From assembly GCA_022750375.1 (NCBI GenBank), contig JAKIVU010000001.1, positions 30,695 to 94,694 on the forward strand: a stretch of DNA of 64,000 nt, given 5' to 3'. Below, in pieces: positions 1 to 13,662 of this stretch; the first letter of the stretch is position 1; each line of letters begins with the position of its first letter. This DNA comes from Thermoplasmata archaeon (GTDB taxonomy: Archaea; Thermoplasmatota; Thermoplasmata; Lutacidiplasmatales; UBA184). The notes beneath the pieces were generated by a model. That model had not been told where the DNA came from and made no database searches. It worked only from the letters and a program-made list of their open reading frames with translations. A program made the translations under genes and the position numbers.

Positions 1-636
1 GCTCGGGTGAGCCGTGACTCCGAGGACGAGCGTCGCATCCTCCAGAACCAAGTCGACAACCTTCGGGCGTACTGCTCGAGAATCGGACTCTCCCTAACCG
101 AAGCAAACGAATTCGTCGAGATCGTTTCGGGAGGGAAGGACGACCGCCCCGAACTGAACCGTCTCCTCGCGGCCGCCAGTCTCCAACGAGGGCGGCCGTT
201 CGACGTCGTCGTGTTCACGAGCTTGAGCCGAATGACCAGGGGTGGGATCGGGAGCGCACTCTACATCCTCGACCGCCTTGCCGCCTCGAAGGTGAGCTGG
301 CACTTCGTGGATCAGCCGCTACTCAACTTCGATTCAAACACTCCAAAGCTCGCGAAGGACATCATCCTCAGCGTTCTCGCCGCCGTCGACGCGGACTACC
401 GCGACCGGATCTCCAAAGCGACGAGGGCGGCGTATCAGAGCCGAGTGAATCTTGCCGCCGGTTCCGGTACGACGGTTCGGTGGGGACGCCACAAGAAGAC
501 CTGCGTTTGCGAAAGGTGCGCGAAGCGACGCGGGGAAATGGGGTCCCCCCCTCTCCATTCTCGTCCGGGATCGGCTAAGGAAATAGGGGCTATTTCCCCG
601 ACAGCGACCCAACCCCTATCGGCTCTTCGGACGTGA
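1..636 (+). CDS. Serine recombinase (resolvase/invertase catalytic domain), 5'-truncated by window edge; Cys-containing C-terminal tail instead of an HTH
   Basis: The window opens in frame with ARVSRDSEDE (catalytic Ser context). Downstream resolvase-type motifs are IVSGGKDDRPELNRLL, VVVFTSLSRMTR and the E-helix RDRISKATRAAYQ. A C-terminal HTH is absent, which is consistent with an IS607-like or small serine recombinase whose HTH is N-terminal and upstream of the window. Confidence 0.75.
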   Translation, partial: ARVSRDSEDERRILQNQVDNLRAYCSRIGLSLTEANEFVEIVSGGKDDRPELNRLLAAASLQRGRPFDVVVFTSLSRMTRGGIGSALYILDRLAASKVSWHFVDQPLLNFDSNTPKLAKDIILSVLAAVDADYRDRISKATRAAYQSRVNLAAGSGTTVRWGRHKKTCVCERCAKRRGEMGSPPLHSRPGSAKEIGAISPTATQPLSALRT

Positions 637-890
637 TACCACCGATGGGGAACGTCTACGTCGCGGTCGGGTTCGCGGCGTTCGCGTCGGTCCTCGAGAT
701 CGTCCTCGTCGTGCTATCCGAGCCACTCTTCATCTTGGTCACGGTCGGTCTCGTACTCGTCGCGACGGACTTGCTATTCGTCAGCTGGCATCCTTACGCG
801 GTCCTCACGAGCCTCGGGATCTACATCTTCGCCGTGATCGTCGGTCTCGTCGGTTTCAGCGTGCTCGACCTCATTCTCAACGTGGTTTGA
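633..890 (+). CDS. Small hydrophobic membrane protein, hypothetical
   Basis: The 85-aa ORF is almost entirely hydrophobic (2-3 TM). Its GTG start overlaps the recombinase stop as GTGA, giving translational coupling. Confidence 0.4.
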   Translation: MIPPMGNVYVAVGFAAFASVLEIVLVVLSEPLFILVTVGLVLVATDLLFVSWHPYAVLTSLGIYIFAVIVGLVGFSVLDLILNVV

Positions 891-1255
891 GGGAGCACGA
901 AGGAACGATGAGCTTCGAAAAGGGATCCGTCCACATCGAGATCGGTTGGGCCGAACTCTCGCAAGATTCAGACCCCGAGACCAGAGTGATGCGACTCGCG
1001 ATCGACGAAATCCAGGGGAAGTTCCACTACGCCGATGACGAAGCCCAGTACGTCGCCGATGACCCGGGGTTTCAAGAGTCCTGCCGGAACGCAGTTCGTG
1101 AGGCTCGTCGCCGGCAGTATCGACTCGATCGAAAGGCTCAGCCGTTGCCGGCGGGCACCGTTCCGAACCCGGCCGCCCAGCGCTTCCGAGTCAAGATCAC
1201 TTTTCCCCGTCCCGGGACGAGAGGGATTTTTCAGAGGGTCTTGACAGAGGACTAG
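887..1255 (+). CDS. Hypothetical protein
   Basis: The ORF overlaps the upstream stop by 4 nt, with a TTG or downstream ATG (908) start. No recognisable motif. Confidence 0.3.
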   Translation: MREHEGTMSFEKGSVHIEIGWAELSQDSDPETRVMRLAIDEIQGKFHYADDEAQYVADDPGFQESCRNAVREARRRQYRLDRKAQPLPAGTVPNPAAQRFRVKITFPRPGTRGIFQRVLTED

Positions 1256-1294
1256 TTCGCCGGTACCTGTGAGCGGGACGCGATCTCCGTTCGA

Positions 1295-2230
1295 TCACTC
1301 GTCCGTCTCGGTCTCCGGCACGGACCTAATCCCCTTCGGTCCCCTGGCTCCGGCTAACGAAACGATCGCGGCTCGGTTAGCGATTTCGTAGGCCCGCTTG
1401 ATCAGTTCCGGAACGAGACCTTCGAACTCATCGATGTGTTCGCGTAACGACTTCGCGAATGCCGGAAGCGCCCGTTCGGTGGCGACCTGGACCAGGATCG
1501 ACGGCTCGGAGAAACCGATCCGCTCAACGAGGATCGAGGCGTAGCCGGGTCCGGCCTTTAGTTCGAAGTCATCACCATCGCCGAGCCGAACCTCGAACAA
1601 CTCCCCATCGAGGACGAGGACCGGGAGAACCAGTCCTCGGTTTGCGGCGCCGCCCTGTGTCGACAGAATCGCGAGAGCCGCGTCGATTACCTGAGCGACC
1701 TTATCTCGCCAGGGTTCGTCCGCCTCGGGCAAATCGTCCTTAGCCTCCCGGTCCTTTGACTTGCCGGCGTGGAATCCAACTTGCCGGATCCCGTACCCGA
1801 ATGGTGATGGGAACGTGATTAAGTTCGGCGGAACGCCCTCCTCGTCCAGGTACTCAGCGATTGCCTTCCCCATGTAGTAGGACGCCCCGGTCCAGAGCCT
1901 GGCGTCCCATTCGGCGAAGAGGCTCGAGTCCGGACCATCGTGCGGGAAGATGATCCACGGTTGGTCCGCCGAGTAGACGCACTCGAACACGCAGTTTACG
2001 GTGAACTCGACGTCGGGCGATCCCCGATGAAGGACGTCCTGCGTCCGAATGTCAATCTCGCGGAACTTGCCGGTCGACTCGCTCCGGTAGCTCGGCCACC
2101 GAGACACGTCCGAGAATCCAGCCTGCCGGAGTGTGCGAGCAGTTCGAATCTCGAGAGGATACCCGGTCTTTCTGAGCCAAGCCTCGGCCATCTTCTGCAG
2201 GTCTTCGGTCGAGGGACGCACAGTCGACAT
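1295..2230 (-). CDS. Hypothetical protein, possible restriction-endonuclease-like fold (fourth gene of a minus-strand operon)
   Basis: The 311-aa ORF has N-terminal pattern GKFREIDIRTQDV ... PDVEFTVNCVFECVYS, which resembles the D ... (D/E)xK-like beta-strand core of PD-(D/E)xK / NERD / Hjc-type nucleases without a canonical Lys. The rest is unknown. Confidence 0.45.
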   Translation of the reverse strand: MSTVRPSTEDLQKMAEAWLRKTGYPLEIRTARTLRQAGFSDVSRWPSYRSESTGKFREIDIRTQDVLHRGSPDVEFTVNCVFECVYSADQPWIIFPHDGPDSSLFAEWDARLWTGASYYMGKAIAEYLDEEGVPPNLITFPSPFGYGIRQVGFHAGKSKDREAKDDLPEADEPWRDKVAQVIDAALAILSTQGGAANRGLVLPVLVLDGELFEVRLGDGDDFELKAGPGYASILVERIGFSEPSILVQVATERALPAFAKSLREHIDEFEGLVPELIKRAYEIANRAAIVSLAGARGPKGIRSVPETETDE

Positions 2231-2317
2231 GGGTCGTGCCCGAGCCCGGAGAAGGTAGACGCCCGCATTCAGTTTGCGGGCGGCCCGTCTGTGGTAAGAA
2301 TCGGACCGTCGAGGTCG

Positions 2318-2911
2318 CTAGAGTCGAAATTTGTTGGAGACCTCTATCGGGAACGGACCCAGGTTGTACTGCCTTCCGTTGAAACTGTCGAGGTAGATGA
2401 AAATCAAAATCTCAGTAGTTCCCTCCCTCTTCGGCAATAATGAGACCTCAAGCTCCTGTTGGTCACGCCCGCTGAGAGGGAAGGTGGTGACCGGCTGATT
2501 GCTCGGGTGCAGAAGAATCTCGGCTGGCCCGAGAAGGTCTCCGTAATAGATCGCCGAAGGGTCCTTTTTCCTGGTTCGGGGAGGATCACCGTACCCCACT
2601 CCGACCGTCCTCGTTTGGCGGCCAAGGTTGTCGACCCTAAGCTGGAAGTGGACCCGTGACTGAGGGTGTACGTTCAGGTGTTTCGAGAGAACCGTAGTCC
2701 GGAGAACGTCTCCGGTACGCTCGGCCCATCTCGTTCGGAGATACTCGCCACCACCCGCCAAGATGAAAATGATGACCGAGACGATCAATCCGACGATGAA
2801 GTAAACTAAGTCAGCCGTCCCGCCCCCAAAGCTGCCAGTATCGGTCACGAGCCCACCGGATGATGGTTCAAGGAACTGGCCGGGTTCGCTTCCTGCGGGT
2901 CTTCGGAGCAC
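2318..2911 (-). CDS. Membrane-anchored hypothetical protein (N-terminal TM, extracytoplasmic C-terminal domain)
   Basis: One strong TM helix (LVYFIVGLIVSVIIFILAG) sits near the N-terminus. An alternative GTG start at 2848 would leave a 19-nt gap to the upstream gene. Confidence 0.45.
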   Translation of the reverse strand: MLRRPAGSEPGQFLEPSSGGLVTDTGSFGGGTADLVYFIVGLIVSVIIFILAGGGEYLRTRWAERTGDVLRTTVLSKHLNVHPQSRVHFQLRVDNLGRQTRTVGVGYGDPPRTRKKDPSAIYYGDLLGPAEILLHPSNQPVTTFPLSGRDQQELEVSLLPKREGTTEILIFIYLDSFNGRQYNLGPFPIEVSNKFRL

Positions 2912-3854
2912 TCGAAGGTTTCAGAGGACGGAGCGGCTTCGCCCGAGCGATGGCCCTCGCCGGTGCGGCGAAGGCCGGCTCGATCTGACTCCACGTCGCT
3001 CTGACCTTGGCCTCCACGGTAGGCTCGTCCAAGCTGGCGGTGAGTCGGTTGATCCCGTCGAACAGGTCACCCAACCCGATCACTTTTGAGATTTCGCGTA
3101 ACTCGCTCTCGTCGGGCATCGTGAACAATATTCCACCATACTTTCGGAGTCCGTCGGCTACGCCTTGAAGTGTTTTGGGAAACGGAAGCCCCTCCGGCAG
3201 CTTTTCGGGGATGCTTGTTAGCGGGGCGTCGAGTAGACTGAGGAAGACGATCGGGCGAACCGAACCCTCAGTCGTGAGCATCAGCATGGTCTTCGGGGGG
3301 AGTCTGCCATCAGCCCGAAGTAGGCCGATGGCCTTCGATAGTTGAGTCGTGTCGTCCAGCTCGACCTTCGTCATACTCTCGAGCAGGGTCCCTATCGACA
3401 GATCTGCGTCGGCAAGCGGCTCTCCGGTCTTGACCTCAGTGTGGGGAACAAGGTCAGCCGGAACGAGGAAGCCCTCGGCGGCCTCCCGCCGGAGCTTCGG
3501 AGTCAGGAACCTTGCCAGGGGCTCGTCGAGAGTCCCGGACTTCAGACTCTCGATCAGGGTCTCCTTGTCCACGCGCGCGATCCGACCGACGCCTTTCGCT
3601 TCGAGGTGGATATCTCCGGTCGGGTGGATTGAGAGTTTCAGAGGGTTCGGAACCAAACCGGGCATCATGAAGACGTAAAGACTCTCGTCGCGCGCCCGAA
3701 CAGTCTTCGTGAGTCGAAGCCCCAGTGGCGGAGAACCGTCCTTCGGCGGATTCGCCACAATCCGAAAGTCACTCTTGTCCTTGACCATCGCTTCTCCTCC
3801 CGAATCGCTACCGATCGAGACAGAACGTCGACTTGTTCTTCCGAACGATATCAT
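2868..3854 (-). CDS. Hypothetical protein with basic C-terminal tail (probable start at 3788)
   Basis: Long ORF with balanced composition. The C-terminus KPLRPLKPSSAPKTRRKRTRPVP is Lys/Arg/Pro rich. The internal Met (MVKDKSDF) at 3788 removes the overlap with the upstream gene. Confidence 0.5.
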   Translation of the reverse strand: MISFGRTSRRSVSIGSDSGGEAMVKDKSDFRIVANPPKDGSPPLGLRLTKTVRARDESLYVFMMPGLVPNPLKLSIHPTGDIHLEAKGVGRIARVDKETLIESLKSGTLDEPLARFLTPKLRREAAEGFLVPADLVPHTEVKTGEPLADADLSIGTLLESMTKVELDDTTQLSKAIGLLRADGRLPPKTMLMLTTEGSVRPIVFLSLLDAPLTSIPEKLPEGLPFPKTLQGVADGLRKYGGILFTMPDESELREISKVIGLGDLFDGINRLTASLDEPTVEAKVRATWSQIEPAFAAPARAIARAKPLRPLKPSSAPKTRRKRTRPVP

Positions 3855-4350
3855 CCGAATAATGACCTCCCCGGTTAGCCGGAGAAGCGACTACCCGGTA
3901 CGCGACGTGCCCGAACCGTTGTTCTGCGTTCCGAATCTTCGCGGTGAGATCGGGAGCCCAGTTCTTTCCTCCCCATCTCGCCGACACCTTGTTCTGCCCG
4001 CTCCTGAGCCACTCGATGACCATGCCGTCTCCTATGATCTCGAGGTTCTCGCCCGAACGAGCGGGCCGATTTTTCTCGAGTGCATAATAAACCGCGACGA
4101 AATCCGAACCCTCGTTTCCCTTCATGTACGACCCTTTGGCTGCTTGATCGAACGGAGCAAGGTCGAAGTTGACGATGTCGCTCATGGCAAGCGTGGTGTG
4201 AGACTGAAGAAACTCCCGCTCAACGGGGACGGATACAGACTCAAGCTCCGGCTCCATGGTCTCGGCCACGAAGACCATCACTCGTTCTCCGGGATCGGGG
4301 CTACCAGATGGTCCGGAGTCGACCCAAATCCGTCGTGGGCGTGGCGGCAT
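3808..4350 (-). CDS. Hypothetical cytoplasmic protein (first gene of minus-strand operon)
   Basis: 180-aa ORF with no TM. It is co-oriented and tightly spaced with the three genes downstream. Confidence 0.45.
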   Translation of the reverse strand: MPPRPRRIWVDSGPSGSPDPGERVMVFVAETMEPELESVSVPVEREFLQSHTTLAMSDIVNFDLAPFDQAAKGSYMKGNEGSDFVAVYYALEKNRPARSGENLEIIGDGMVIEWLRSGQNKVSARWGGKNWAPDLTAKIRNAEQRFGHVAYRVVASPANRGGHYSDDIVRKNKSTFCLDR

Positions 4351-4436
4351 GCTCTGACGGCGTAATCCTCGGTTGGCTATTCAAACACCCGGTCGCCGGG
4401 CGTCAAGTGCTTTAGGAGGAACCGGAGTCGGGAGGC

Positions 4437-4919
4437 ATGGATTGGGCCTCATTTGCGGAAGGGTTAGTCGCCGGGGTCCTCCTAACCACCGTAAGCGGCT
4501 TCCTCGTGAACTTTCTGCAACCGCTCGCCCTTCACTACGGGAAGAAGCTCCTCCCGTCGAAGCCGGCACAGAAGCAACAAGTGAAGGCCGAGATCGAACG
4601 CGAAGGCCCAAAGGCCGACTTCGACCTTGTCGAATCAGTAGCAAAGATTGTTGGTACCGCGCTGCAAGAGTTCGTCACAGAGATGGAACCGTTCTTCTCC
4701 GCGTGGATCCAGGCGACCAGTGGCTTCGCGACCGGCGTGAGCGCGATCGTTGTGGCCGCAGAGTTCCTCTCGGTCCTCCTGATCGGTGAGTACCTCGGCG
4801 TCGACGTTGTCGGGCTTGTGCTCGGCCTGGCCGCGAGCGTGATGGTTGTAGGGGCGATCGAAGTCGGGCTCGCAGAGCGGATGTTTCGGAAGGCGAAACT
4901 CGGACCGAACCCGAAGTAG
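4437..4919 (+). CDS. Hypothetical membrane protein
   Basis: The 160-aa ORF has an N-terminal TM and a C-terminal double TM (SAIVVAAEFLSVLLIG ... LVLGLAASVMVVGAI) with a charged middle. It immediately precedes the AAA+ gene. Confidence 0.4.
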   Translation: MDWASFAEGLVAGVLLTTVSGFLVNFLQPLALHYGKKLLPSKPAQKQQVKAEIEREGPKADFDLVESVAKIVGTALQEFVTEMEPFFSAWIQATSGFATGVSAIVVAAEFLSVLLIGEYLGVDVVGLVLGLAASVMVVGAIEVGLAERMFRKAKLGPNPK

Positions 4920-4934
4920 GACCAATTCGGCAGG

Positions 4935-5801
4935 TTGCGGGAGGACATCCAGATGAATTTCGACTTTCGACCACGGAACCTGGATGAGGTGCTGGGCCAG
5001 CCCAAGGCCGTCGCGATCCTGCGCAAGGTTGTCGCGTCGCTCAACCGGGGCGTGTCACCGTCAAACGCACTTTTCTTCGAAGGCCCGCCCGGTACCGGTA
5101 AGACTAGCACCGCGTATGCACTCGCGGGCGAGATAACGAACTCAACCGTCTGGGAGCGGAACTGTGGGGAGTCGACTGCCGTCAGTCTTCGTGAGGAGCT
5201 AGAGTCAATCGCTGGTCATCGGGACTGGAATGACGGCAACTCTCGGCTGATCGTTCTCCTTGACGAGTTCGAGCGGATCACGAAGAATGATCGGATTTCG
5301 CTTCGAAGGCCCCTCGAGCTGGCTGCCTCCCATGCACTCATTGTGATAACGGCGAACGAAGAGATTGGTGATCCCGGCCTCGAGTCTCGAACTCGGCTCG
5401 TCGAGTTTGTTCGACTTGACGATGGGGCCAGTCGCGCCCTTATCGCTCGAGTGTCCTCGCGTCTCGGTCTCCGTCCTTCGGAGGCAGCGATTCTATCCGT
5501 CATTCGGGACAGCAAAGGGGACGGGCGGGCGATTCTCGACAACATCCGAATAGTCGAAGAGGACCTCCTCGCCGAGCCCATGCCGGCACCATCTGCCGAA
5601 GAACCGCTCGGTCGGTCGAAGGGGGGTCGGAAGAGGGCCGACGTCGACGCTGAGCGATGTGCCGAGCTTCGACGACAGGGAATGTCGTGGACGCAGATTG
5701 GCAAGTCGGTGGGTCACCCGGCGTCCACGGTACGAGATCGTGTGCTCGAAAAGTACCCCGACCTAGCGGGAACCCCCTCCGGGAACCCTTCCGGAAACTA
5801 G
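4935..5801 (+). CDS. AAA+ ATPase, RFC/clamp-loader-like core fused to a C-terminal HTH domain
   Basis: Walker A is GPPGTGKTS, Walker B is IVLLDEFERI, sensor-1-like is VITANEE, and GDGRAILDNI resembles the RFC small-subunit GDMRxAxNxL motif. The C-terminal ELRRQGMSWTQIGKSVGHPASTVRDRV is a sigma-70 r4 / LuxR-like HTH. Confidence 0.7.
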   Translation: MREDIQMNFDFRPRNLDEVLGQPKAVAILRKVVASLNRGVSPSNALFFEGPPGTGKTSTAYALAGEITNSTVWERNCGESTAVSLREELESIAGHRDWNDGNSRLIVLLDEFERITKNDRISLRRPLELAASHALIVITANEEIGDPGLESRTRLVEFVRLDDGASRALIARVSSRLGLRPSEAAILSVIRDSKGDGRAILDNIRIVEEDLLAEPMPAPSAEEPLGRSKGGRKRADVDAERCAELRRQGMSWTQIGKSVGHPASTVRDRVLEKYPDLAGTPSGNPSGN

Positions 5802-5850
5802 CGAATCGGGGTTTCCGGAGGGGATTCCGGTATAGGTTTCCGGAGAGCGG
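5779..5850. repeat. Cluster of TTCCGG(A) half-palindromes including two exact GGTTTCCGGAG copies 25 bp apart
   Basis: Read directly in the sequence: tccggga(5779), ttccggaa(5789), ggtttccggag(5810-5820), ttccgg(5825), ggtttccggag(5835-5845). The cluster straddles the stop of the AAA+/HTH gene. Confidence 0.5.
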
Positions 5851-6016
5851 TCAGGCCCGCCTCCGTTCGGTCCGTTCCTTCCGGCTACGCGACGGGTCTA
5901 TCGCCTCTCGACTCTGATGTAACGTCTCACCCGGTCGGACCCCGGAGACGAGAGGACATCCGGTGAGTCGACCCTCCACGGGGAATCTGTCGATGGGGTT
6001 TCTTCCTGGCATCGAG

Positions 6017-7279
6017 CTACCTCTTCGCCGTCCGAAGGGCAACCTTCGCTCGATTGCAGAGAAGGCGGACGGCTGCGCGGGACACCCGAATTCTCTTTTC
6101 GTCAAGGAAGACCTCGACGTCACCCATCGAAAGCCTGGTCAGACCCCTCTCCTCGGCCCAAGCAACACACTCGGCGACTAGCGGTTCGATTCGGGTCCGC
6201 TCTTCTTCGGCAAGGCTCGCACTCAGGTCCATCGATAAGTCGTCTGCGATTTTCTGGACCAGAAGATCGAGAGGAGAGCCATCGTGAGGAACTCCCGGGA
6301 ATAATCCGGCCGCCGGGGCTGGTAGCTCTAACTTCGTGGAGAGGAATCGGCGGAAACCCTGTTCGATAGAGAATCGACTCGTCTCGAGCGGGCCCGGGCG
6401 CTGTTTCATCCCGGCGACGAACTCCTGAACGAACTCGTCTTTCCGAGTAGTCAGCGTCTCGAGAGCCCCCGAGTTGTCGGTATTGGGTTGCTCGTCGGCC
6501 TCTTCTTCGTCGATCCCCGCCCATTCGGCGGTCTTCAGTAAGACATGGAATTCGCCGTCAAACAGGAAGGCGAGTTCGACGAGCCAAGTCTCCCCGACGT
6601 GCTTCGCCCGCTCCGGATTCTCGTCGCCTTGACCAACTATCGCCTCGTTCAGGTATAGTACTTTGGCCCCGATCTTCTTCGCGAGAGTCAGAAATTCGGT
6701 CGCGTCCTCGCCCGACCAAGTTACAGCCTCCTCGGTCGGGAGGTTCCCTCGGAAAGGGAAGATTGGAAGCTCGGCCGCCTTACGCACATCGTCGGCGAGT
6801 TCGCTTAGGGTTCCACGATCCTTGGCCACGGTATCAAACCCGGAATGGCAGACTTCCCCTTCAAGCGCTCGGTCGGGAACTGCCCCGTCGATGACCTGGC
6901 CGCCGATACCGATGTTGAGGGCTTGGAGAAACTCGGGCGATAGACTCGAAAGGGCGAGGCGCTCAAGAGAATGCGGCTCTATCTCGACCTCAGCGTCGAC
7001 ACAGGAATCCGGCTGGACTACACGTCCCAAAAGAACGGAGGCGCTGAATGCTTCGCCCGCTCGATCATCTCCTGGATAGATGGCAACTTGCCGAAATCGA
7101 CGGTCGGCGGCGTCATGATCCACCAAACTCGCTGCCCGGATAACCTCGCAGCCGGGGATGTGACGTCGCGGACCCGATAACGGGCGGTATGAAGGTCTCG
7201 ATTGAAAACGTCGCGCGACTCGATCTCGACGATATAATCCATCGCCGGGTAGGGCGACTGGATCGTAACGTCCCACCAC
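6017..7279 (-). CDS. Hypothetical protein (start uncertain; ORF N-terminus overlaps the upstream gene by about 260 nt)
   Basis: Long ORF with acidic stretches and no recognisable motif. The true start is probably internal, since the first ~87 aa are Arg-rich and overlap ORF 7018-7809. Confidence 0.4.
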   Translation of the reverse strand: MVGRYDPVALPGDGLYRRDRVARRFQSRPSYRPLSGPRRHIPGCEVIRAASLVDHDAADRRFRQVAIYPGDDRAGEAFSASVLLGRVVQPDSCVDAEVEIEPHSLERLALSSLSPEFLQALNIGIGGQVIDGAVPDRALEGEVCHSGFDTVAKDRGTLSELADDVRKAAELPIFPFRGNLPTEEAVTWSGEDATEFLTLAKKIGAKVLYLNEAIVGQGDENPERAKHVGETWLVELAFLFDGEFHVLLKTAEWAGIDEEEADEQPNTDNSGALETLTTRKDEFVQEFVAGMKQRPGPLETSRFSIEQGFRRFLSTKLELPAPAAGLFPGVPHDGSPLDLLVQKIADDLSMDLSASLAEEERTRIEPLVAECVAWAEERGLTRLSMGDVEVFLDEKRIRVSRAAVRLLCNRAKVALRTAKR

Positions 7280-7809
7280 TCGTCCGGGTCGGGATCGAGG
7301 TACGTCCGGTATGCCCCAACAGTACCCGTCGTCGGCGCCTTGAGATTCGCCTTACGGACGAGCGCCTTTGCTTCGACAGTTTCCGGGAACATGAACCATG
7401 TAAACTTGACGTCCTTCGCGACCCCCGGTCCTAGGTTTCGAATTGCCAGTCTGGGGCCTTCCAAGCCGGGGCCAGTTGTCGGGCCAGGCGGACCGGCTCC
7501 AAGAGCTAGAGTAGCGAGCACCGGACTCGGTCGATGAGAGGCCCTGGTTGTGTCGATCGAGCTGACCGCGGAGACGAGTCCAGCGAATGCCAGCGCAAGC
7601 GTCCCGGTAGCGAGCAACGCCTCGACCTGGTCCGAGATTGAAACCGGCGGTAACCAACCCGCGGGCCAGTGCCAACCCGCATCGAGACCGAAAATCAGAG
7701 CGACAATCTGACCGATGATTGCGAGACCTAGGATCGCAGCGAACTGCGCCCGGTTTTTGTAGAGCCACTCGTCGGCTTCCCGACGACCGAGCCAATCCCA
7801 GAGTCCCAC
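7018..7809 (-). CDS. Hypothetical membrane protein
   Basis: The N-terminal region has 2-3 TM helices (FAAILGLAIIGQIVALIFGL, LATGTLALAFAGLVSAV), followed by a soluble domain. Confidence 0.45.
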   Translation of the reverse strand: MGLWDWLGRREADEWLYKNRAQFAAILGLAIIGQIVALIFGLDAGWHWPAGWLPPVSISDQVEALLATGTLALAFAGLVSAVSSIDTTRASHRPSPVLATLALGAGPPGPTTGPGLEGPRLAIRNLGPGVAKDVKFTWFMFPETVEAKALVRKANLKAPTTGTVGAYRTYLDPDPDEWWDVTIQSPYPAMDYIVEIESRDVFNRDLHTARYRVRDVTSPAARLSGQRVWWIMTPPTVDFGKLPSIQEMIERAKHSAPPFFWDV

Positions 7810-8047
7810 GTCGGCCGATTGGTGCCACCGACTTCAACCTGCCGCCGGCCTCGTCCCAGCCGAACGGAGGCGTCGGCTGTCGGAGGTGGCCGATCCGACT
7901 ACAGGGACCCGGTTTAATCCCGCACTGACCCCCAAATCGACGGCGTGGCGGGTTTTGACCCCAAAAACGGGGTGTGGGGCCCCCCGAGTCCAGAGACGAC
8001 CCCGTGTGGGTCTATTCTCGTCCCTTCCGGACCATGGGGGCCTTCGC

Positions 8048-8512
8048 TTACGGTTCGCGATTGCCGCGCTTGGCGGCCTCGTAAACGACGCCGATGATGA
8101 CAGCTGCGGCGAGCCAGCAGAGAAGCGCGAAAACGAGCGGCGAGACCCCGATTTCGGACGCGAGCCCTTCGGATAGTGTACGGTCGAACAGGAGCCAAAG
8201 TTCGATTGCGACCACCACGACGAAGACGAACGCGAAGCCGACCCAATCCGCCAGGCCCACAGACTGCCCAAGATGGATTCGAATACTGGACTTTGAAGGT
8301 ACTGTTCGATGATCGGAGGTCGTCGGGCGTTTGCAGGCCTTAGAATCGTCAGCGAGAACCTTGGGATTATGGCGGGACCGCTTTCCCGCAGTAGGAACAG
8401 AACCCGCCGGCCCTCTGGCCCCCCACTCCCCCAGGCGGGGCTGATTCGAATGGTCGGTGACGCTGCGCGAGACTTTCGCCGATGACTGGTCCCCACGGAG
8501 TTCCCGTGGCAT
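8048..8512 (-). CDS. Hypothetical membrane protein (possibly only the C-terminal about 65 aa; GTG start near 8255)
   Basis: The C-terminus has two TM helices. The 5' part overlaps the zinc-ribbon ORF in another frame, suggesting either a shorter gene or a frameshifted relic. Confidence 0.3.
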   Translation of the reverse strand: MPRELRGDQSSAKVSRSVTDHSNQPRLGEWGARGPAGSVPTAGKRSRHNPKVLADDSKACKRPTTSDHRTVPSKSSIRIHLGQSVGLADWVGFAFVFVVVVAIELWLLFDRTLSEGLASEIGVSPLVFALLCWLAAAVIIGVVYEAAKRGNREP

Positions 8513-8600
8513 TCATACGCAGAAGGAGATACCCTCGCATGGCCCGAAAGCGATTCGCGTACATTTCTAGCGGCGACACGGCCTTCAAGCTCGGCGTCAA
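8367..8600 (-). CDS. Small protein with C-terminal zinc-ribbon (GGFCSYCGKAVPP), paralog of 9241-9624 C-terminus
   Basis: The C-terminal FCSYCGK motif, and about 45 nt of DNA encoding it, is nearly identical to 9246-9294. Confidence 0.35.
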   Translation of the reverse strand: MTPSLKAVSPLEMYANRFRAMRGYLLLRMNATGTPWGPVIGESLAQRHRPFESAPPGGVGGQRAGGFCSYCGKAVPP

Positions 8601-8784
8601 GGGGATTGAGATCTACATCTCGGCCGCCGATCACCCGAACAAGAAGGAGGCAGTAGTTGGAACGCTCTTCGTCGCGAAGGCGGGGATTCGTTGGCTCCCG
8701 AAGAGAGGGAAGGCAGTCCTCAAGGGAAAGCACGTGGCGGGCTACAAAATCTCTTGGGACGAACTGACCGCGATGGTCCCGTAG
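8541..8784 (+). CDS. Hypothetical small basic protein
   Basis: MARKRFAYISSGDTAFKLGVKGIEIYISAADHPNKKEAVVG... has clean composition. ORF track entry is 8482-8784; the internal Met at 8541 is preferred. Confidence 0.35.
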
Positions 8785-8900
8785 TCGGGCCGTCCGACCC
8801 CTCCACAGAAGGGTGAACCGTCCGACGACGGAGCCGGTCCTCTGGTTCGACCTCGCGATCTAGGTATCTCCCGTTCAGCGTTCGGCGGGGATTGACGGAC

Positions 8901-9383
8901 TCACTCGTCGGGTTCTACCTTCATTCCGAGAATGTGCTTGGCGTGCCCCAGCATGACGAGAGCGCCGCCAACATCTCCGGTAGCAAAGGCTTGCTCGGCC
9001 TGAGCCAAGTATCGTCCGGCCGCCTGATACATTCGCTCCCATCCTCCGTCGTAGAGAACGGCATCGATTTTGGTCTCGAGCGTCACCATACGATGTTCGA
9101 ACTGCGTCCTTGGATCCTCGGTTTCGCGCCTCGACCGGACCATAGCTCCCCTGCTTCGGATATCGAGGGGCAACTTCAAAGAGATGTCGTTCGGCGACCC
9201 GTGCTGGACGGGCTCAGCCCGGCCGCCAGCGAGTCTAGAGTTACCGGGGCACTGGTTTGCCGCAGTAGGAGCAGAATCCACCGGCCATCTGGCCTCCAGC
9301 CCCGCACGACGGGCAAAATCGAGTTGAACCGCCGGATGGCGGCGGGGGAGGAGGAGCCGGCGACTGGTATTGCGGCGGCGCAT
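8901..9383 (-). CDS. Hypothetical protein (likely only the C-terminal ~80 aa from Met at 9140)
   Basis: The full ORF overlaps 9241-9624. The C-terminal part MVRSRRETED...GHAKHILGMKVEPDE is compositionally protein-like. Confidence 0.3.
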   Translation of the reverse strand: MRRRNTSRRLLLPRRHPAVQLDFARRAGLEARWPVDSAPTAANQCPGNSRLAGGRAEPVQHGSPNDISLKLPLDIRSRGAMVRSRRETEDPRTQFEHRMVTLETKIDAVLYDGGWERMYQAAGRYLAQAEQAFATGDVGGALVMLGHAKHILGMKVEPDE

Positions 9384-9624
9384 ACATCTGACGGTTCGCC
9401 TGAGCGGCGTTCATTGCAATCTGCTGTTGGAGGAGCATGTTGGTCTGCGCCTGTTGCTGACTCATCCTCTCGGCGTCCCCCCTCGCGGAGATCCCGGATG
9501 CGAGTAGAACGATTCCAATGATGAGTAACACAATTCCAAGCAAGATGCCGATAATAGTCACGAAGAAGACTATCCCGGCGAGCAGGAACAAAACTCCAAA
9601 GACGATTCGGACTATCCCTGCCAC
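9241..9624 (-). CDS. Membrane protein with N-terminal double TM, Gln-rich linker, poly-Pro and C-terminal zinc-ribbon
   Basis: MAGIVRIVFGVLFLLAGIVFFVTIIGILLGIVLLIIGIVLLASG then QQQAQTNMLLQQQ, then PPPPPP and CPSCG...FCSYCGKPVPR. Confidence 0.5.
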   Translation of the reverse strand: MAGIVRIVFGVLFLLAGIVFFVTIIGILLGIVLLIIGIVLLASGISARGDAERMSQQQAQTNMLLQQQIAMNAAQANRQMYAPPQYQSPAPPPPPPSGGSTRFCPSCGAGGQMAGGFCSYCGKPVPR

Positions 9625-10157
9625 GACTCCGCACCCTCGTCCCGGGTGATAATACCGTTGAGGAACCGTTCAGAGCCACCAGGTCGAATTCTCACGAGCC
9701 TCGAGAGCTCGAATCTCAGGGGCATTCGGGTGGACCGCGCAAGGCGCGAGGTCGAAGCACACCGAGCAGATGACCGGCCCGAATCTCGGGGGTCGAGGCA
9801 GAGTGGCCCTTCTCTCCTTCCCCGCCCAAGCCCTCTGGGCCTGCTCGGTATCGGACTTTCCCGATTCTTTCGGACGAGCAATACAGGTCCGAAGGCGTCC
9901 GGCGGTATGCATCTTACGCAGGTTCGCGGAAGCATTCCATCATTCAATCGGAAGTATTGCCGACGAACCGAGCCTCCGCTCTCTAAGCTGGCAGAATCGA
10001 TACCCCAGGGCTATTGTGAAGGAGGTTCGACCGCAGGGTGGCTCGGATAGCCGCTGCCCCGCATCGAGCGAACCAAAGCCTTAACGGCGCCAACAAGGAT
10101 AGGAGTCCAGCCCAGCCGGCCCGGGATCGAACGTTCCAGTGCGTGGGGGAGGTTCAG

Positions 10158-10427
10158 ATGCGCTCACCAAAACTCGCCTTTCTCATCGTATCGTGTATAG
10201 TTGTCAGCGTCGGCGTGGTGGTGTTCGTGGCGGCCTATCTCGCAGGCTGTGGGGGATCGCAGCAGACTGGCTGTCCTCCCCTAGGCTGTAACTCCGGCAC
10301 AACCGCCACTTGCGAAGCGCCACTCGTAGAGGCCGCCGGGGGCCTCCTCATCGCCTCCGGTTCCGCTATCGCCGTTTTGCTTACCGTAAGGGCGAACTGG
10401 CCACGACTCGCGCAACTCGACACCTGA
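10158..10427 (+). CDS. Small membrane/secreted Cys-rich protein
   Basis: An ATG is preceded by GGAGGT 5 nt upstream. The protein has an N-terminal TM (LAFLIVSCIVVSVGVVVFVAAYLAG), then Cys-rich CGGSQQTGCPPLGCNSGTTATC, then a second hydrophobic segment. Confidence 0.45.
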   Translation: MRSPKLAFLIVSCIVVSVGVVVFVAAYLAGCGGSQQTGCPPLGCNSGTTATCEAPLVEAAGGLLIASGSAIAVLLTVRANWPRLAQLDT

Positions 10428-10503
10428 TCGAATCAGAGTTCCACATAACACGATGTGCACCGGTAACCGGACGGCGATCTTTCAGTTTGGACCGGAGCGT
10501 CAG

Positions 10504-11925
10504 CTATGTGACGATCAAGGACCAAAACGTGAGATAAGTCTCACCGTTTGATTCGACGGCGTAGAGGGCCATGAGGTAGGTGCCAACGGCAAAACCCGAT
10601 GGCAGGCTCACTATCATCTTTGCATTTGGAAGGTAAAAGTAAGAATCTGCCTGCACAGTCGAGGATGCCGGTGAAAAGGAGACGTCACCGCAGGGGACAG
10701 AGCAGAAGTTGTATTGGTAGCTCACCGGAAAACCGTAGGAAGGGTCCGCCAACGGGTCTATCTCGGCGTCAATGACGCGAGGAGCAGTATTGCTAACCTG
10801 GACTGTAAATTCGCCGTTCCCAAACCACGTCCCGACCCACGAAGCGAAGTTTTCGTTGGAGATATTCACTTCATTGTATGGACTGTTCCAGAATGATTCA
10901 TACTGGCCCGGGAAGCCTGTCGGCGGGCTGACGCTGTATGTCGTCCAAGAAATTTGGTAGGCAGCTGAGGGAGGCGTTTGCGCGACGATTGACGTGTGTA
11001 AGTTAAACGCAGGCCATGCCTCAACAGGATTATTCCCATAATCCTCTTCGTAATCTGTAAAATCGTCCCAGGCAACGATGGGATTCCAGCACTCCTGTGT
11101 ATAGTCTGCCAACACGAAACTCGTTCCCCCGGTGTACCAGGTTCCTGATCCGATAACCGTGCCCGCACCATTGGGACCCTGAACCTGGAAGGAAACTGTG
11201 CCGCCAGAGATCGACATAGTAAACCGGTATGACTCAGAATATGCGAGTGGGCCGTACGAGAAGGAGTAGTACGTTGTAGCGCAACTCCACCACCCCACCA
11301 CGCCGAACGAGAAATATGCGCACCAGTTGCCCGTGTTGTAGCACGGACTCGAGGTCTGACTAACCGACCACTGACCGCCCTGGCTTCCCGCGCCGACGAT
11401 TCCCATCTGGTCGTAGACGTATCCATTGTCGAAAACCGAGGCGCCAATGAAAACCGTGTCACCTTCGGACGAGCTTTGTGGGGTCGTTATGTTAAAAGTC
11501 AGTTTTGTCACGTAGAAGGCCATACCGTGACTATCAAGCGACCCGAACTTCCAGTCACCAGGGCCGCCACCCGAGGTCACGGCGGACTGGCCAAGAAGAT
11601 GCGATGTGGCGGGTCCGGAGAATCTCGGCGGACCAGAATAGGCGGGAGCGACGACCGACGGACCTGTCTCGTTGTCTCCTCCATCGGCCATGGCGGTCTC
11701 CTTTCCGTGATCCAGAACTGAGGAGTTCGTTTCGAGATTTACGCGGTCAAGAGTAGAGGACTTCTCGATCCCGGAATCTGTATGGTCCGCCGAAGGAATT
11801 TGGACCGGAAAATCCCGTGCATTGCTCGCCTCGCCGTAGCCGCTACTGACGACGAAAAGCACCGCGAGCGAACAAATGGAGAGGCCCACAACTAGGGAAC
11901 GGTGCGACTTCGAACGAGCCGCCAC
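10504..11925 (-). CDS. Secreted aromatic/Ser/Thr/Gly-rich beta-type protein (speculative: glutamic-peptidase/thermopsin-like or lectin-like)
   Basis: It has an N-terminal signal/anchor (LVVGLSICSLAVLFVVSSG). 473 aa rich in W, Y, S, T, G, and it carries many N-x-S/T sequons. VAWDDFTDYEED is faintly reminiscent of the G1 peptidase WIVEDF motif, but this is unverified. Confidence 0.55.
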   Translation of the reverse strand: MAARSKSHRSLVVGLSICSLAVLFVVSSGYGEASNARDFPVQIPSADHTDSGIEKSSTLDRVNLETNSSVLDHGKETAMADGGDNETGPSVVAPAYSGPPRFSGPATSHLLGQSAVTSGGGPGDWKFGSLDSHGMAFYVTKLTFNITTPQSSSEGDTVFIGASVFDNGYVYDQMGIVGAGSQGGQWSVSQTSSPCYNTGNWCAYFSFGVVGWWSCATTYYSFSYGPLAYSESYRFTMSISGGTVSFQVQGPNGAGTVIGSGTWYTGGTSFVLADYTQECWNPIVAWDDFTDYEEDYGNNPVEAWPAFNLHTSIVAQTPPSAAYQISWTTYSVSPPTGFPGQYESFWNSPYNEVNISNENFASWVGTWFGNGEFTVQVSNTAPRVIDAEIDPLADPSYGFPVSYQYNFCSVPCGDVSFSPASSTVQADSYFYLPNAKMIVSLPSGFAVGTYLMALYAVESNGETYLTFWSLIVT

Positions 11926-12171
11926 CTGTTGGCATAGGCCTTTCGTCTATTTCAACCAATGACGAAGGGGCCGATTTTCAACGGTCTGGAGCGAAGTTCA
12001 GATACGTATGGAGTCGTGGGCACTTGACCGAGGTGGCCTTCGAGTTCGAGATCGCGGTTCGGCTTTCTTCGGAATAACAGCGCGACACCCAAACGCGGAC
12101 TGGGCATCAAAGAGCGCCACAGAAAGGCCCCGGACAGAGGTCACCGGTTTGAGTCAGGTTTAAGCGCCTTT

Positions 12172-12783
12172 GTGGGCTCCGAGAAGAATCCGGTTGTTGG
12201 GTACGGGACACCGTGCGGAACGGGGTTTAAGAACTCTATGGAGCAACAGTACCGCATGGAGTTCGCGGCGGGGTTGCATGCCCAAGAAGTGCAACGCATC
12301 TCCGCGGGCGATGCAATACGCGCCGTGCTCATCTGCCCCGACGGCGAGCAGGACGGTCGGCTGACGTTCGGCGCGCCTATTCCTGGGCGGACGAGATTGA
12401 TGAAGGAGCTATTTCTGGTGTCTCGGGAAACAGAGGTGGGCCAGGCTGGGGCATTCGGATTCGAGTTCACTCCGGGCCCTTACGGTCCCTCCTCAGTGGA
12501 GGTCCAGCATGAACTGGACCGATTGACGACCATAGGCGACGTGCTCCAGGACCCACTCGAGCGTGGGGACGGGACACTCGTTCGAATCTCCGAGAGGGGG
12601 TACGAGTGGGCCAGATCTATCTGGTCGGCGCTCCCTCCTGAAACGGCGCGTGGGTTCTACTCGATCAAATCTAGATTCAATCAGGTTCCGTATGCCGCGC
12701 TGATGTTCTACGTTTACTCTGCCTACGCAGAATTCACTGCGAATTCGAGGATCCGAGAAGAGGTCCTGGGCCCTCACGCATGA
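12172..12783 (+). CDS. Hypothetical protein with Panacea (DUF4065)-like segment; candidate antitoxin
   Basis: RLMKELFLVSRE ... FGFEFTPGPYGPSSVEVQHELDRL resembles the Panacea/SocA-like pattern (KLxKLLYxxD ... FEAWxYGPVxPEVY). The likely start is Met at 12238. It overlaps the downstream gene by 4 nt. Confidence 0.4.
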   Translation: MGSEKNPVVGYGTPCGTGFKNSMEQQYRMEFAAGLHAQEVQRISAGDAIRAVLICPDGEQDGRLTFGAPIPGRTRLMKELFLVSRETEVGQAGAFGFEFTPGPYGPSSVEVQHELDRLTTIGDVLQDPLERGDGTLVRISERGYEWARSIWSALPPETARGFYSIKSRFNQVPYAALMFYVYSAYAEFTANSRIREEVLGPHA

Positions 12784-13553: not shown

Positions 13554-13662
13554 GTCGGGAAGGTCAATCCCTCCCGCCGATCGACGCCTATCAGTTCTCG
13601 AGGCGCCAATTCAATCATGGCGGCGATTCACTTTAGGACTGCGAAAGCGAGACTAAGCTAAG

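Follow-up and report, generated by a model that had tools for sequence, protein, structure and literature searches.

A clamp-loader ATPase joined to a helix-turn-helix and the repeat array at the 3' end of its gene: a probable protein-site cassette of small mobile elements

What does a clamp-loader-like AAA+ ATPase do when it ends in a helix-turn-helix (HTH) domain and its gene runs into a cluster of short repeats? The question is raised by one gene in the 64-kb stretch of Thermoplasmata archaeon DNA analyzed here in full (the window). A preliminary description of the locus had taken this gene for a truncated RFC/clamp-loader ATPase fused to an HTH, had judged that it was not a standard chromosomal gene, and had read the repeats as iterons of a replication-initiator or partition-type protein. 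Our analyses indicate that the gene and its array most likely form a cognate protein-site cassette, as far as sequence comparison can tell. A replication-related role for the pair, for example in origin recognition or loading, is a serious but tentative proposal.

The gene lies in a low-GC island that also carries a serine recombinase (Table 1), and it stands apart from ordinary RFC paralogs, in line with the view that it is not a standard chromosomal gene. Almost no matches were obtained when the island genes were compared with Pfam, PHROG and PADLOC, and no second RFC-like gene was found in the 64-kb window. The next gene after the ATPase-HTH gene converges on it from the opposite strand. 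The mechanical ORF extends from 4935 (TTG) to 5801, and the likely start is the ATG at 4953, 9 nt past a GGAGG; the 282-residue product is identical to the NCBI record 'AAA family ATPase [Thermoplasmata archaeon]'.

Table 1. Features of the island, the ATPase-HTH gene and the repeat array (positions in the window)
Feature	Position	Strand	Remarks
Low-GC island, almost all orphan genes	1..13600	.	about 60% vs 68% GC
Serine recombinase gene, cut by left window edge	1-636	+	
Weak single unit GGTTGCGGGAG, 2 mismatches, possible	4933..4943	+	overlaps ribosome-binding region of ATPase-HTH gene
RFC-like AAA+ ATPase-HTH gene, 282 aa	4953..5801	+	stop TAG 5799-5801
AAA+ domain I, residues 1-155, RFC boxes II-VII	4953..5417	+	NCBIfam, PDB, family invariance, pLDDT >90
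Walker A GPPGTGKT, residues 44-51	5082-5105	+	
Walker B DE, residues 104-105	5262-5267	+	
Sensor 1 N135	5355-5357	+	
SR arginine finger, residues 145-146	5385-5390	+	
AAA+ lid domain II, residues 157-199	5421..5549	+	PDB alignment, family invariance, Foldseek
Sensor 2 / RFC box VIII GDGRAILDNI, residues 189-198	5517-5546	+	R192 at 5526-5528
Pro-rich disordered linker, residues 200-232, in place of RFC collar	5550..5648	+	pLDDT 41-62
GGRKR arm at linker end	5622-5636	+	GGR invariant in family
Three-helix HTH, residues 233-273, homeodomain-like / resolvase type	5649..5771	+	profile matches, model
Left arm of array, three minus-oriented units 5767-5777, 5777-5787, 5788-5798	5767..5798	-	
Dyad-centre spacer TAGCGAATCGG	5799..5809	.	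includes stop codon
Right arm of array, three plus-oriented units: GGTTTCCGGAG 5810-5820, GGATTCCGGTA 5822-5832, GGTTTCCGGAG 5835-5845	5810..5845	+	
Solitary TTCCGG (CCTTCCGG)	5879..5884	+	34 nt past array, array membership uncertain
First clear host gene Endo_dU	13663-14433	-	

In residues 1-199 we recognize the AAA+ module of an RFC small subunit: RFC boxes II to VIII are all there, among them the N-terminal RP..L....GQ and the LRR..E motif. The Walker A and B motifs, sensor 1 and the GDGRAILDNI of box VIII that had been read from the letters are all in place; their catalytic residues are invariant in the family, as are all ATP-site residues and the arginine finger across its eight members. 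Since this finger acts in trans, its retention suggests that the protein is presumably oligomeric. The RFC small subunit was the best NCBIfam match (E 1e-19), at 70.8 bits and thus below the curated equivalog cut-off of 303 bits for NF001679, while yeast Rfc3 was the top PDB sequence match (E 2e-15), residues 5-199 aligning with Rfc3 and archaeal RFCS. The predicted structure (pLDDT 91) was matched by Foldseek to domains 1+2 of archaeal RFC (2chg) with an rmsd of 2.7-3.3 A over 201-222 alignment columns. PHROG matches pointed to clamp loaders as well, and the nearest cellular sequence (P0002) shares 39% identity across 69% of the query. Neither Cdc6, ORC nor Bac_DnaA was among the 22 Pfam matches of the protein (E up to 1), and no member of the Cdc6/ORC/DnaA clade was present among the top NCBIfam, best 60 PDB sequence and best 50 fold matches. 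The Rep_fac_C collar domain (PF08542), which true RFC matches have, gave no Pfam match. The notion of a truncated clamp loader is therefore upheld: profile searches place the ATPase with RFC and not with IstB/DnaC, Orc/Cdc6 or DnaA, and it is cut after the lid. Judged by its residues, it is a derivative of the archaeal RFC small subunit whose AAA+ module is complete and catalytically intact.

Several other identities were considered and rejected. IstB/DnaC, Orc/Cdc6, DnaA, RuvB, RarA and defence ATPases (IetA, mad8 and others) either matched the P-loop only or scored far under RFC; in particular, a DnaC-like PHROG match was limited to the P-loop. The cyanobacterial plasmid 'RarA/unknown domain fusion', taken as a possible Rep precedent, refers to 737-aa PRK13341-type proteins with no evident link to the protein studied here. 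Spindle-shaped and pleomorphic viruses of archaea have signature AAA+ ATPases of their own (bioRxiv 10.1101/2025.02.15.638363); no PHROG or sequence match pointed to these, and a tie to packaging would be a functional analogy.

The C-terminal part begins where it had been placed, after about 230 residues, with the HTH starting at about residue 233. Helices in the model span residues 233-241, 246-253 and 257-267. The HTH itself was borne out. As a refinement of the sigma-r4/LuxR assignment, the domain, with its GRPR-like arm, appears to resemble resolvase/Hin and HTH_23 domains more than LuxR. Across the family, matches were obtained to HTH_23 (six of seven members), HTH_7 (three of seven), HTH_38 and Sigma70_r4_2, although all Pfam HTH scores for the window protein fall below the curated cut-offs. 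The family HTH profile aligns from the GRPR of the gamma-delta/Tn3 resolvase DNA-binding domains onward, as a weak match (E 0.3), and also matches the C-terminal HTH of serine recombinases in two of the loci compared (L029 and L086). The DNA-binding domains of Hin and gamma-delta resolvase use a GRPR arm and an HTH on a 12-13 bp half-site, with the arm in the A/T minor groove; this half-site size and A/T groove match the unit size of the array and its central TTT/AAA. The order of a GRPR-like arm followed by a three-helix HTH appears common to Hin, gamma-delta/Tn3 resolvase (HTH_7), HTH_23 and the ATPase-HTH protein, but the serine recombinase HTH is joined to a recombinase catalytic domain and here it is joined to an AAA+ ATPase.

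Set against the RFC small subunit itself (RfcS; NF001679; 2chg, 1iqp; yeast Rfc3), the protein shares homologous AAA+ domains I and II, boxes II-VIII and the GDxR sensor 2, and its arginine finger reads SRT where RFC has SRC. It differs behind the lid, where RFC has the collar that assembles the pentamer and the ATPase-HTH protein has a linker and a predicted sequence-specific HTH. It is also encoded on a mobile element, beside a putative cognate array, and has no large-subunit partner.

The repeats at and after the stop codon were confirmed, including the two exact copies of GGTTTCCGGAG at 5810 and 5835, 25 bp apart, of which no other copy exists in 64 kb. TTCCGG occurs at 5789, 5813, 5825, 5838 and 5879 on the plus strand and at 5791 on the minus strand. 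Going beyond the preliminary description, we observed that the array consists of six 11-nt units whose starts follow each other at 10-13 bp, that three of them converge on the other three around the stop codon, and that the left set lies inside the ORF, where it encodes the C-terminal tail TPSGNPSGN. The left-arm units read GGGGTTCCCGC, GGTTCCCGGAG and GTTTCCGGAAG on the minus strand, and the dyad centre falls just past the stop codon. The earlier caution that the repeat might be frequent by chance was checked in two ways. The bare hexamer is not enriched over the window (77 sites vs 71.6 expected), whereas the local cluster is far past chance: 100 bp hold 6 sites, and none of 300 dinucleotide shuffles had more than 4. 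The weak unit ahead of the gene may be a chance match; 38 unit matches at <=2 mismatches were counted on both strands of the 64 kb. No second dyad of array units was found in the window. A scan for bacterial-type promoters and terminators was uninformative.

When 1.84 billion cluster representatives, standing for 15 billion proteins, were searched exhaustively, we obtained only seven further clusters with the ATPase-HTH architecture, all of them in small mobile-element contexts; in total, the family comprises ten sequences among 15 billion proteins. The seven full-length relatives were found at E 1e-58 to 1e-38 and the next matches were RFCs that align with the ATPase part only (E 1e-20 or worse), so that the two groups lie at least about 18 orders of magnitude apart in E-value; every family member carries the fusion. 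Less exhaustive methods found less: a word-indexed search recovered only the window protein and, with the family profile, three of the eight members. Scans of GTDB genomes, IMG/VR and JGI metagenomes gave ordinary RFC, RarA and DnaX relatives only, and when 50,697 records of phages and 72,556 of plasmids were searched by tblastn, the matches were confined to the ATPase domain, at <=33% identity. Full-text literature searches brought up no account of an RFC-HTH fusion. The family sample used below consists of eight loci, mostly on short contigs.

The preliminary description had proposed looking for the same repeat elsewhere in the genome or in plasmids and viruses of relatives. Of the seven relatives, five have a clear GAAAC.../...GTTTC array at the 3' end of the gene and a sixth has a degenerate one, so that with the window six of the eight family loci have a clear array, a seventh has a degenerate trace, and the eighth is without a convincing one. 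In L001, L029, L031 and L032/L033 the array units recur with a period of 12-13 bp, and all these arrays are oriented alike with respect to the gene; the array of L030 is degenerate, and those of L034 and L035 are at best degenerate and not convincing. Exact GAAAC/GTTTC pentamers numbered 16 vs 1.8 expected (P about 1e-10), with GAAAC 5' of GTTTC in every case. In each unit a G-run and a GTTTC core are combined with 4-5 bases that are specific to the locus, and the arms are built of 12-13 bp direct repeats. The unit variant differs from locus to locus and is common to all units within one locus, a pattern that an element-encoded binder would be expected to leave. The placement of the stop codon relative to the array varies, and tblastn with the relative P0122 runs through the window stop codon to 5846; what is conserved is therefore the DNA and not the protein.

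The ATPase-HTH protein is the sole protein common to all family loci, and no conserved downstream partner gene was detectable among them. Integrase type varies, with serine recombinases in the window and L029 and tyrosine integrases at tRNA genes in L001, L031 and L032. In L086-L088, which have the L001 backbone without the ATPase gene, no array was found upstream of the homologue of the large gene; the 652-aa product of that downstream gene in L001 has no Pfam match and three homologues only, all unannotated. Gene and 3' array, the latter made of five to six repeats of binding-site size in two converging sets, are inherited together, and we regard it as probable that protein and array are a cognate pair.

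How such a pair might work can be outlined as follows. One HTH with its arm would bind each unit, and the array would stand in for the missing collar by concentrating and orienting five or six protomers. The AAA+ modules could then form an ATP-dependent, RFC-like spiral or ring on the element DNA. Least certain is the last step, in which the assembly might serve replication of the element, either by origin-type site marking or remodelling or by recruiting or loading host replication factors like PCNA or MCM. What speaks for a replication role is that the ancestry of the ATPase lies in the replication machinery. The most novel version of this scheme, which we consider rather improbable, is a sequence-specific, DNA-templated clamp loader: the array of HTH sites would assemble collar-less protomers, and their spiral would load or hold the host PCNA, or a different ring, for example MCM, at one defined site of the element.

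Origin-like features give a mixed picture, and the iteron reading was accordingly sustained in part: the cis tie between array and gene holds, while for an initiator or partition function a dyad in L001 counts in favor, and the lack of an AT-rich element and the backbones without the gene count against. The 11-mer specific to the L001 locus, GGGGTTTCCGC, is found again at 6259-6295 as two inverted copies; it matches 4 times in the locus vs 0.45 expected (0 of 200 shuffles reach 4). This second dyad lies in apparently non-coding DNA between 69-nt inverted repeats and borders a stretch whose GC content (54-57% vs 67%) is the lowest for about 2 kb on each side. No AT-rich unwinding element was found within 300 nt of any array; the visible 13.6 kb of the window island contained neither such an element nor an origin-like non-coding region. 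L087 has window-type GGTTTCCGG units in an origin-like region and no ATPase-HTH gene on its 6.6-kb contig, so another factor might bind units of this type. Because the ATPase-HTH gene is dispensable in the L086-L088 backbone, it would there be an accessory and not the essential initiator.

Comparison with known initiators places the cassette beside them, not among them. Like Orc1/Cdc6 with its ORBs and DnaA with DnaA boxes, the protein combines an AAA+ module and a C-terminal HTH (winged in some of these systems) with several short sites in inverted sets beside its own gene, which here are putative. It belongs to another AAA+ clade, being a clamp loader with a plain three-helix HTH and a GRPR arm, and an AT-rich unwinding element, which in those initiator systems is flanked by the sites, adjoins none of the ATPase-HTH arrays. 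Mini-ORBs are 13 bp long and have TTCC/GAA motifs in common with the array (PMC1904270). Plasmid iterons measure 19-22 bp, whereas the array units have a length of 11 nt, follow each other at 10-13 bp and converge in two sets. A cis site within or at the end of the binder gene is familiar from lambda O/ori-lambda, plasmid Rep/iterons, parB/parS and R1 parR/parC. The ATPase-HTH gene resembles these initiator and centromere cassettes in having close repeats in or after the gene of the presumed binder, in a module that moves between replicons; none of their proteins, however, is an RFC-type AAA+ ATPase.

The centromere cassettes lead to the first of two alternatives that we consider unlikely, though worth weighing. 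By analogy with parS/ParB and the EBNA1 FR/DS sites, the array could be centromere-like and the bound ATPase-HTH could serve segregation, stability or tethering, keeping the excised element, for example, through PCNA or the replisome. Modularity is typical of par cassettes, in which the centromere is usually found beside or inside the gene of the binding protein. Gene and array likewise form a self-contained module that occurs on unrelated backbones with differing integrases and is missing from otherwise syntenic elements, and two closely spaced repeat sets lie at the binder gene, with L001 carrying both an array and a distant dyad. Against this, no conserved partner motor ATPase of the ParA, ParM or TubZ type is found alongside, we know of no AAA+ protein of the clamp-loader clade that acts in partition, and the idea that the elements exist as episomes is without support in the loci examined.

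A comparably low likelihood attaches, again by analogy, to a transcriptional regulator that would form an ATP-dependent oligomer, with the array as operator of its own operon or of the downstream gene. An AAA+ module with a C-terminal HTH and several adjacent sites would fit a higher-order assembly, and bacterial NtrC/PspF enhancer-binding proteins, which assemble as oligomers on tandem upstream sites, have the same domain order. The ATPase stop codon lies within the overlap with the next gene in L001, L031, L034 and L035, and the array (in L034 and L035 the tail region where it would be) lies 30-100 nt upstream of the start of that gene; in the window, the weak unit overlaps the ribosome-binding site of the ATPase-HTH gene itself. 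The downstream genes, however, are not homologous between loci, and in the window the next gene is convergent. In L001 a Shine-Dalgarno sequence but no TATA-like element precedes the downstream gene, which is therefore co-transcribed. The ATPase descends from clamp loaders and not from a regulator clade: the NtrC/PspF proteins belong to a different AAA+ clade, the Sigma54_activat signature (PF00158) is not among the Pfam matches of the protein, and the host is archaeal. To our knowledge, archaea lack sigma-54.

Still less probable is that the repeats form a hairpin unrelated to the HTH, which could act in RNA, at the 3' end or in stability, or as a DNA cruciform for another factor, which may be a recombinase, a packaging protein or host Orc1/Cdc6 acting on mini-ORB-like TTCC...GAA units. 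The single strand 5755-5855 has a strong predicted fold (-55.9 kcal/mol, z = -3.7), hairpin potential is retained in relatives although the sequence differs, and L087 carries window-type units with no visible ATPase-HTH gene. A simple hairpin would not need arms made of 12-13 bp direct repeats, which are nevertheless present at every array locus, and an Rfam search of the array region matched no family. Archaeal termination is, as far as we know, not hairpin-dependent. The concerted divergence of the units at each locus argues against a conserved host binder, and the integrase type is not constant from locus to locus. Finally, the reading of an ordinary or decaying chromosomal RFC paralog beside chance repeats can claim the unenriched bare TTCCGG but is hardly credible, given a local cluster above all shuffles, an array likewise placed and oriented in five of the seven relatives, whose proteins are 35-47% identical, invariant catalytic residues, a fusion shared by all members across an E gap of 1e-38 vs 1e-20, and a gene embedded in a low-GC island of orphan genes.

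The cognate protein-site cassette remains the most likely reading. The origin recognizers DnaA and Orc1/Cdc6 and the clamp loaders are separate AAA+ clades with separate jobs. On the sequence evidence, the present family is a clamp-loader module that has swapped its oligomerization collar for a predicted sequence-specific HTH and that co-evolves with a dedicated array, and such a protein-plus-site module for element replication or maintenance looks undescribed. The family is extremely rare, and its ecological weight is accordingly small; the interest is mechanistic and evolutionary. With a single protein of 282 aa and some 80 bp of DNA, the system is compact enough to be directly testable in vitro. 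If the ATPase does assemble on the array as a template, mobile elements would have a previously unseen means of making site-specific machines out of host replication parts. Should the DNA-templated loader prove true, the element would hijack the host replisome in order to replicate or be inherited, machines of the clamp-loader type could be built in a way not seen before, and the family would represent a third independent AAA+ origin-recognition lineage beside DnaA and Orc1/Cdc6. For the little-known small integrative elements of uncultured Thermoplasmata, the cassette would provide a handle on replication or persistence.

The likely start of the ATPase-HTH gene is the ATG at 4953, 9 nt past a GGAGG, and the resulting 282-aa product has an identical counterpart in NCBI, an 'AAA family ATPase [Thermoplasmata archaeon]' encoded on a 157-kb MAG contig. 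Residues 5-199 matched RFC small subunits best (NCBIfam NF001679, E 1e-19), with further matches to yeast Rfc3 (E 2e-15), archaeal RFCS structures and, for the ATPase part, phage clamp-loader PHROGs (E 3e-18). RFC boxes II to VIII are all recognizable, and Walker A, Walker B, sensor 1 N135, the arginine finger R146 and sensor 2 R192 are invariant family-wide. In the AlphaFold model (pLDDT 91), domain I and the lid domain are followed by a disordered linker at 200-232 and, at 233-267, by three short helices; the model superimposes on 'domains 1 and 2' of archaeal RFC (2chg) at 2.7-3.3 A. All but one of the best 50 Foldseek PDB matches were RFC-type clamp-loader subunits, the exception being a RuvB. 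The collar domain (Rep_fac_C) is absent. Profile, PDB and PHROG comparisons gave no support for the IstB/DnaC, Orc/Cdc6, DnaA or enhancer-binding-protein families.

The C-terminal part opens with an invariant GGR(P/K)R. HTH profiles matched six (HTH_23), four (Sigma70_r4_2) and three (HTH_7) of the seven members, and the family HTH profile aligned with gamma-delta and Tn3 resolvase starting at their GRPR, as well as with the C-terminal HTH of serine recombinases in L029 and L086, two of the contigs compared below. This domain is predicted to be a homeodomain-like, resolvase-type HTH. The truncated RFC-like ATPase with an HTH that the preliminary description had proposed was borne out: as judged from sequence, the comparisons show a collar-less RFC module with intact catalytic residues fused to a resolvase-type HTH, and by descent the protein is an RFC small-subunit derivative. 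It is placed outside the clamp-loader-subunit class because the collar is absent and its score of 71 bits falls short of the 303-bit cut-off. No second RFC-like gene was found in the 64-kb window.

Scanned exhaustively with HMMER, 1.84 billion cluster representatives yielded seven full-length relatives (289-379 aa, E 1e-58 to 1e-38), all with the layout ATPase-linker-GGRPR-HTH. Beyond these came ordinary RFCs, matching in the ATPase part only and at E 1e-20 or worse, which answers the concern that the gene is an ordinary RFC paralog. With cluster members included, the family comprises 10 sequences in approximately 15 billion proteins. Two other database proteins (P0161 and P0237, 544-580 aa) carry 5-7 tandem stretches resembling the family HTH (query residues 223-266); theirs is an unrelated architecture with repeated copies of a similar HTH.

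The repeats reported after the gene were recovered in full. TTCCGG occurs on the plus strand at 5789, 5813, 5825, 5838 and 5879, and the two exact copies of GGTTTCCGGAG, 25 bp apart, lie at 5810 and 5835 and are the only ones in the 64 kb. The bare hexamer is not enriched across the window (77 seen, 71.6 expected), yet the local cluster of 6 sites per 100 bp exceeds the maximum of 4 in 300 dinucleotide shuffles. The five half-palindromes originally listed proved an incomplete account, since they belong to a larger structure of six units in two arms. Unit starts are spaced by 10-13 bp, and the 11-nt spacer between the arms includes the stop codon; the left arm lies within the ORF and codes for the tail TPSGNPSGN. 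A 2-mismatch copy of the unit, GGTTGCGGGAG at 4933-4943, overlaps the Shine-Dalgarno region of the gene. There are 38 such matches across the 64 kb, and this copy could be an autoregulatory site or chance.

Coordinates and sequences of the gene, its array and related features; each contig has its own numbering
Feature	Locus	Position	Orientation	Sequence
ATPase-HTH open reading frame	window	4935-5801	+	
Left arm, three units	window	5767-5798	minus	GGGGTTCCCGC, GGTTCCCGGAG, GTTTCCGGAAG (minus-strand reading)
Right arm, three units	window	5810-5845	plus	GGTTTCCGGAG, GGATTCCGGTA, GGTTTCCGGAG
Flank after GTTTC	window			CGGAG
Flank after GTTTC	L001			CGCAA
Flank after GTTTC	L029			CACGG/CGTGG
Flank after GTTTC	L031			GGTA
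Flank after GTTTC	L033			GGCG
Apparently non-coding region downstream of the large gene	L001	6089-6340		
Apparently non-coding region downstream of the large gene	L086	5200-5450		
Apparently non-coding region downstream of the large gene	L087	5597-5812		
Apparently non-coding region downstream of the large gene	L088	5090-5233		
Window-type units	L087	5597-5812		TCCGGAAACCTC / GAGGTTTCCGGA; CCTAGTTTCG / CGAAACTAGG

The search for such repeats in relatives was productive. The same kind of array was found in L001, L029, L031 and L032/L033, and a degenerate form in L030; L034 and L035 had no convincing array at the 3' end of the gene. The arrays cover the final 30-100 nt of the gene, the DNA directly after it, or both, with GAAAC-containing units followed by GTTTC-containing units at a period of 12-13 bp. 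Exact GAAAC/GTTTC pentamers near the stop codons number 16 against 1.8 expected (P ~1e-10), with GAAAC 5' of GTTTC in every case. The stop codon lies at the dyad in the window, L029 and L033 and past the whole array in L001 and L031, and a tblastn match with the relative P0122 continues in frame across the window stop codon, to 5846. Conservation therefore lies in the DNA, with the 'TPxGG' tail of the protein as a by-product. Three further elements, L086-L088, were reached through homologues of the 652-aa protein encoded downstream in L001; they share the L001 backbone, in which an integrase-like gene is followed by a gene of 270-307 aa, small genes and a large gene. Both the ATPase-HTH gene and, at the corresponding place, the array are absent from them; gene and array thus act like a single cassette, gained or lost together, and protein and array are probably a cognate pair.

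In the window, the first 13.6 kb have approximately 60% GC against 68% in the remainder and carry orphan genes almost throughout. A serine recombinase gene runs past the left window edge, the window beginning within its ARVSRDSEDE...Q catalytic motif; the 60 C-terminal residues of the cut protein contain a CxC..C cluster, not an HTH. Because of this low-GC orphan-gene island and the recombinase, we assign the ATPase-HTH gene to an integrated mobile element that extends leftward beyond the window. The right border falls at approximately 13.6 kb, beside an Endo_dU gene (13663-14433, minus strand), and no att site or tRNA was found for the island. Among its other products, a 203-aa protein (12172-12783, plus strand) has matches to PDC-M19A, a candidate defence family of PADLOC (E 7e-8), to the C-terminal end of a Type I specificity subunit model, and to phrog_14939; the gene for a 257-aa protein (12780-13553) overlaps its end. 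A 127-aa protein (9241-9624, minus strand) has weak matches to the DUF5362 and DUF308 membrane-protein families and to zinc-ribbon families, and a 473-aa Ser/Thr/Tyr-rich protein (10504-11925, minus strand) with a hydrophobic N-terminal segment matches no Pfam, PHROG or PADLOC family. Should the island be a provirus, these last two are candidates for envelope or virion components.

The contigs of the relatives look like small mobile elements. L001 carries tRNA-Ala, followed by a 468-aa protein that weakly matches a tyrosine integrase and recurs in L031 and L032, and behind it closely packed genes in one orientation. A serine recombinase is present in L029. A weak recombinase match aside, the ATPase-HTH is the only protein common to all loci. 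In L029, an AAA_15/AAA_21 (OLD/AbiEii-like ABC) ATPase gene (679-1593) ends 2 nt ahead of the ATPase-HTH gene and was not found in the other family loci. L029 also has a second repeat family, directly past the array and again 1.3 kb away (2672-2692, 4018-4038 and 4075-4094; two CCGTTCCAATCGTCGTGCCCC and the palindrome TTCCAATCGGACGATTGGAA), and an AT-rich GTTACATAACGTAATAAC stretch upstream of the resolvase gene. In L032 a tRNA-Ile gene (2076-2152) sits between two divergent copies of the integrase-like protein (525-3507), pointing to tandem or nested integrations; the only stretch that L032 and L033 have in common is the 5 kb nearest the ATPase-HTH gene. In five of the seven independent assemblies (L030, L031, L032/L033, L034, L035) the contig stops 58-192 nt past this gene, and for two such contigs from different assemblies (25 and 34 kb) the end points differ by no more than 14 nt. 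This points to a branch of the assembly graph shortly past the cassette, for example at variable cargo, the end of an element or an att site.

Several observations bear on replication. The L001 11-mer GGGGTTTCCGC occurs four times with at most one mismatch (0.45 expected; four reached in 0 of 200 shuffles), twice within the array and twice as an inverted pair (6259-6295). Downstream of the large gene, where the DNA is apparently non-coding, 69-nt inverted repeats enclose this pair, and it sits on the margin of the stretch with the lowest GC (54-57% against 67%) for approximately 2 kb on either side. The equivalent regions of L001, L086, L087 and L088 share long inverted repeats and G-strings and are apparently non-coding, with small ORFs placed over them by gene callers; those of L001, L086 and L088 are AT-rich, that of L087 only moderately. 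From their sequence they look like replication origins of the shared backbone, and the large protein (563-758 aa), which has CxxC clusters and no Pfam match, may be an undescribed Rep. The L087 region has nested inverted repeats around a G/C-string with window-type GGTTTCCGG units, and the motif GAAACTAG is found there and in the stop-codon units of the window and L029. The 6.6-kb L087 contig has neither the ATPase-HTH gene nor a stand-alone HTH homologue; another binder may therefore also use such units. Against a replication link we count that none of the arrays has an AT-rich element within 300 nt, that the window island has no origin-like non-coding region or second dyad, and that the L086-L088 backbone manages without the gene.

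Most family loci have the array next to the gene, and its units are specific to each locus. The DNA-binding domains of Hin and gamma-delta resolvase bind 12-13 bp half-sites with a GRPR arm in the A/T minor groove. This fits the central TTT/AAA of the unit, and each 12-13 bp unit would be bound by one HTH and arm. The array could then act as a scaffold in place of the collar, assembling five or six protomers, and ATP-dependent assembly would serve element replication through origin recognition, remodelling or recruitment of host PCNA/MCM. We infer this scheme from eight loci; a replication-related role is the reading we tentatively favor, and the iteron/initiator or partition function proposed in the preliminary description is plausible. 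Lambda O/ori, plasmid Rep/iterons and parB/parS have a similar site-in-own-gene layout. A segregation or tethering cassette is rather unlikely, and a transcriptional regulator is unlikely to the same degree. That the repeats are a hairpin or a site for another factor is less probable still; the array region as a single strand folds at -55.9 kcal/mol (z = -3.7), and an Rfam search of it matched no family. Given the shuffles and the pentamer excess, chance is very hard to credit.

DnaA and Orc1/Cdc6 have a similar design (an AAA+ module with an HTH, repeats beside the gene), although the ATPase-HTH falls outside their clade. Mini-ORB repeats have a length of 13 bp and conserved TTCC and GAA motifs (PMC1904270), and their resemblance to the array units is a lead only. 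In the literature searched, no description of an RFC-HTH fusion was found. The family is extremely rare, which limits the interest of the system. Protein and array would together represent a predicted site-specific AAA+ DNA-binding ATPase with cognate repeats, built from a clamp-loader module, a surprising design that is compact enough for direct in vitro tests.
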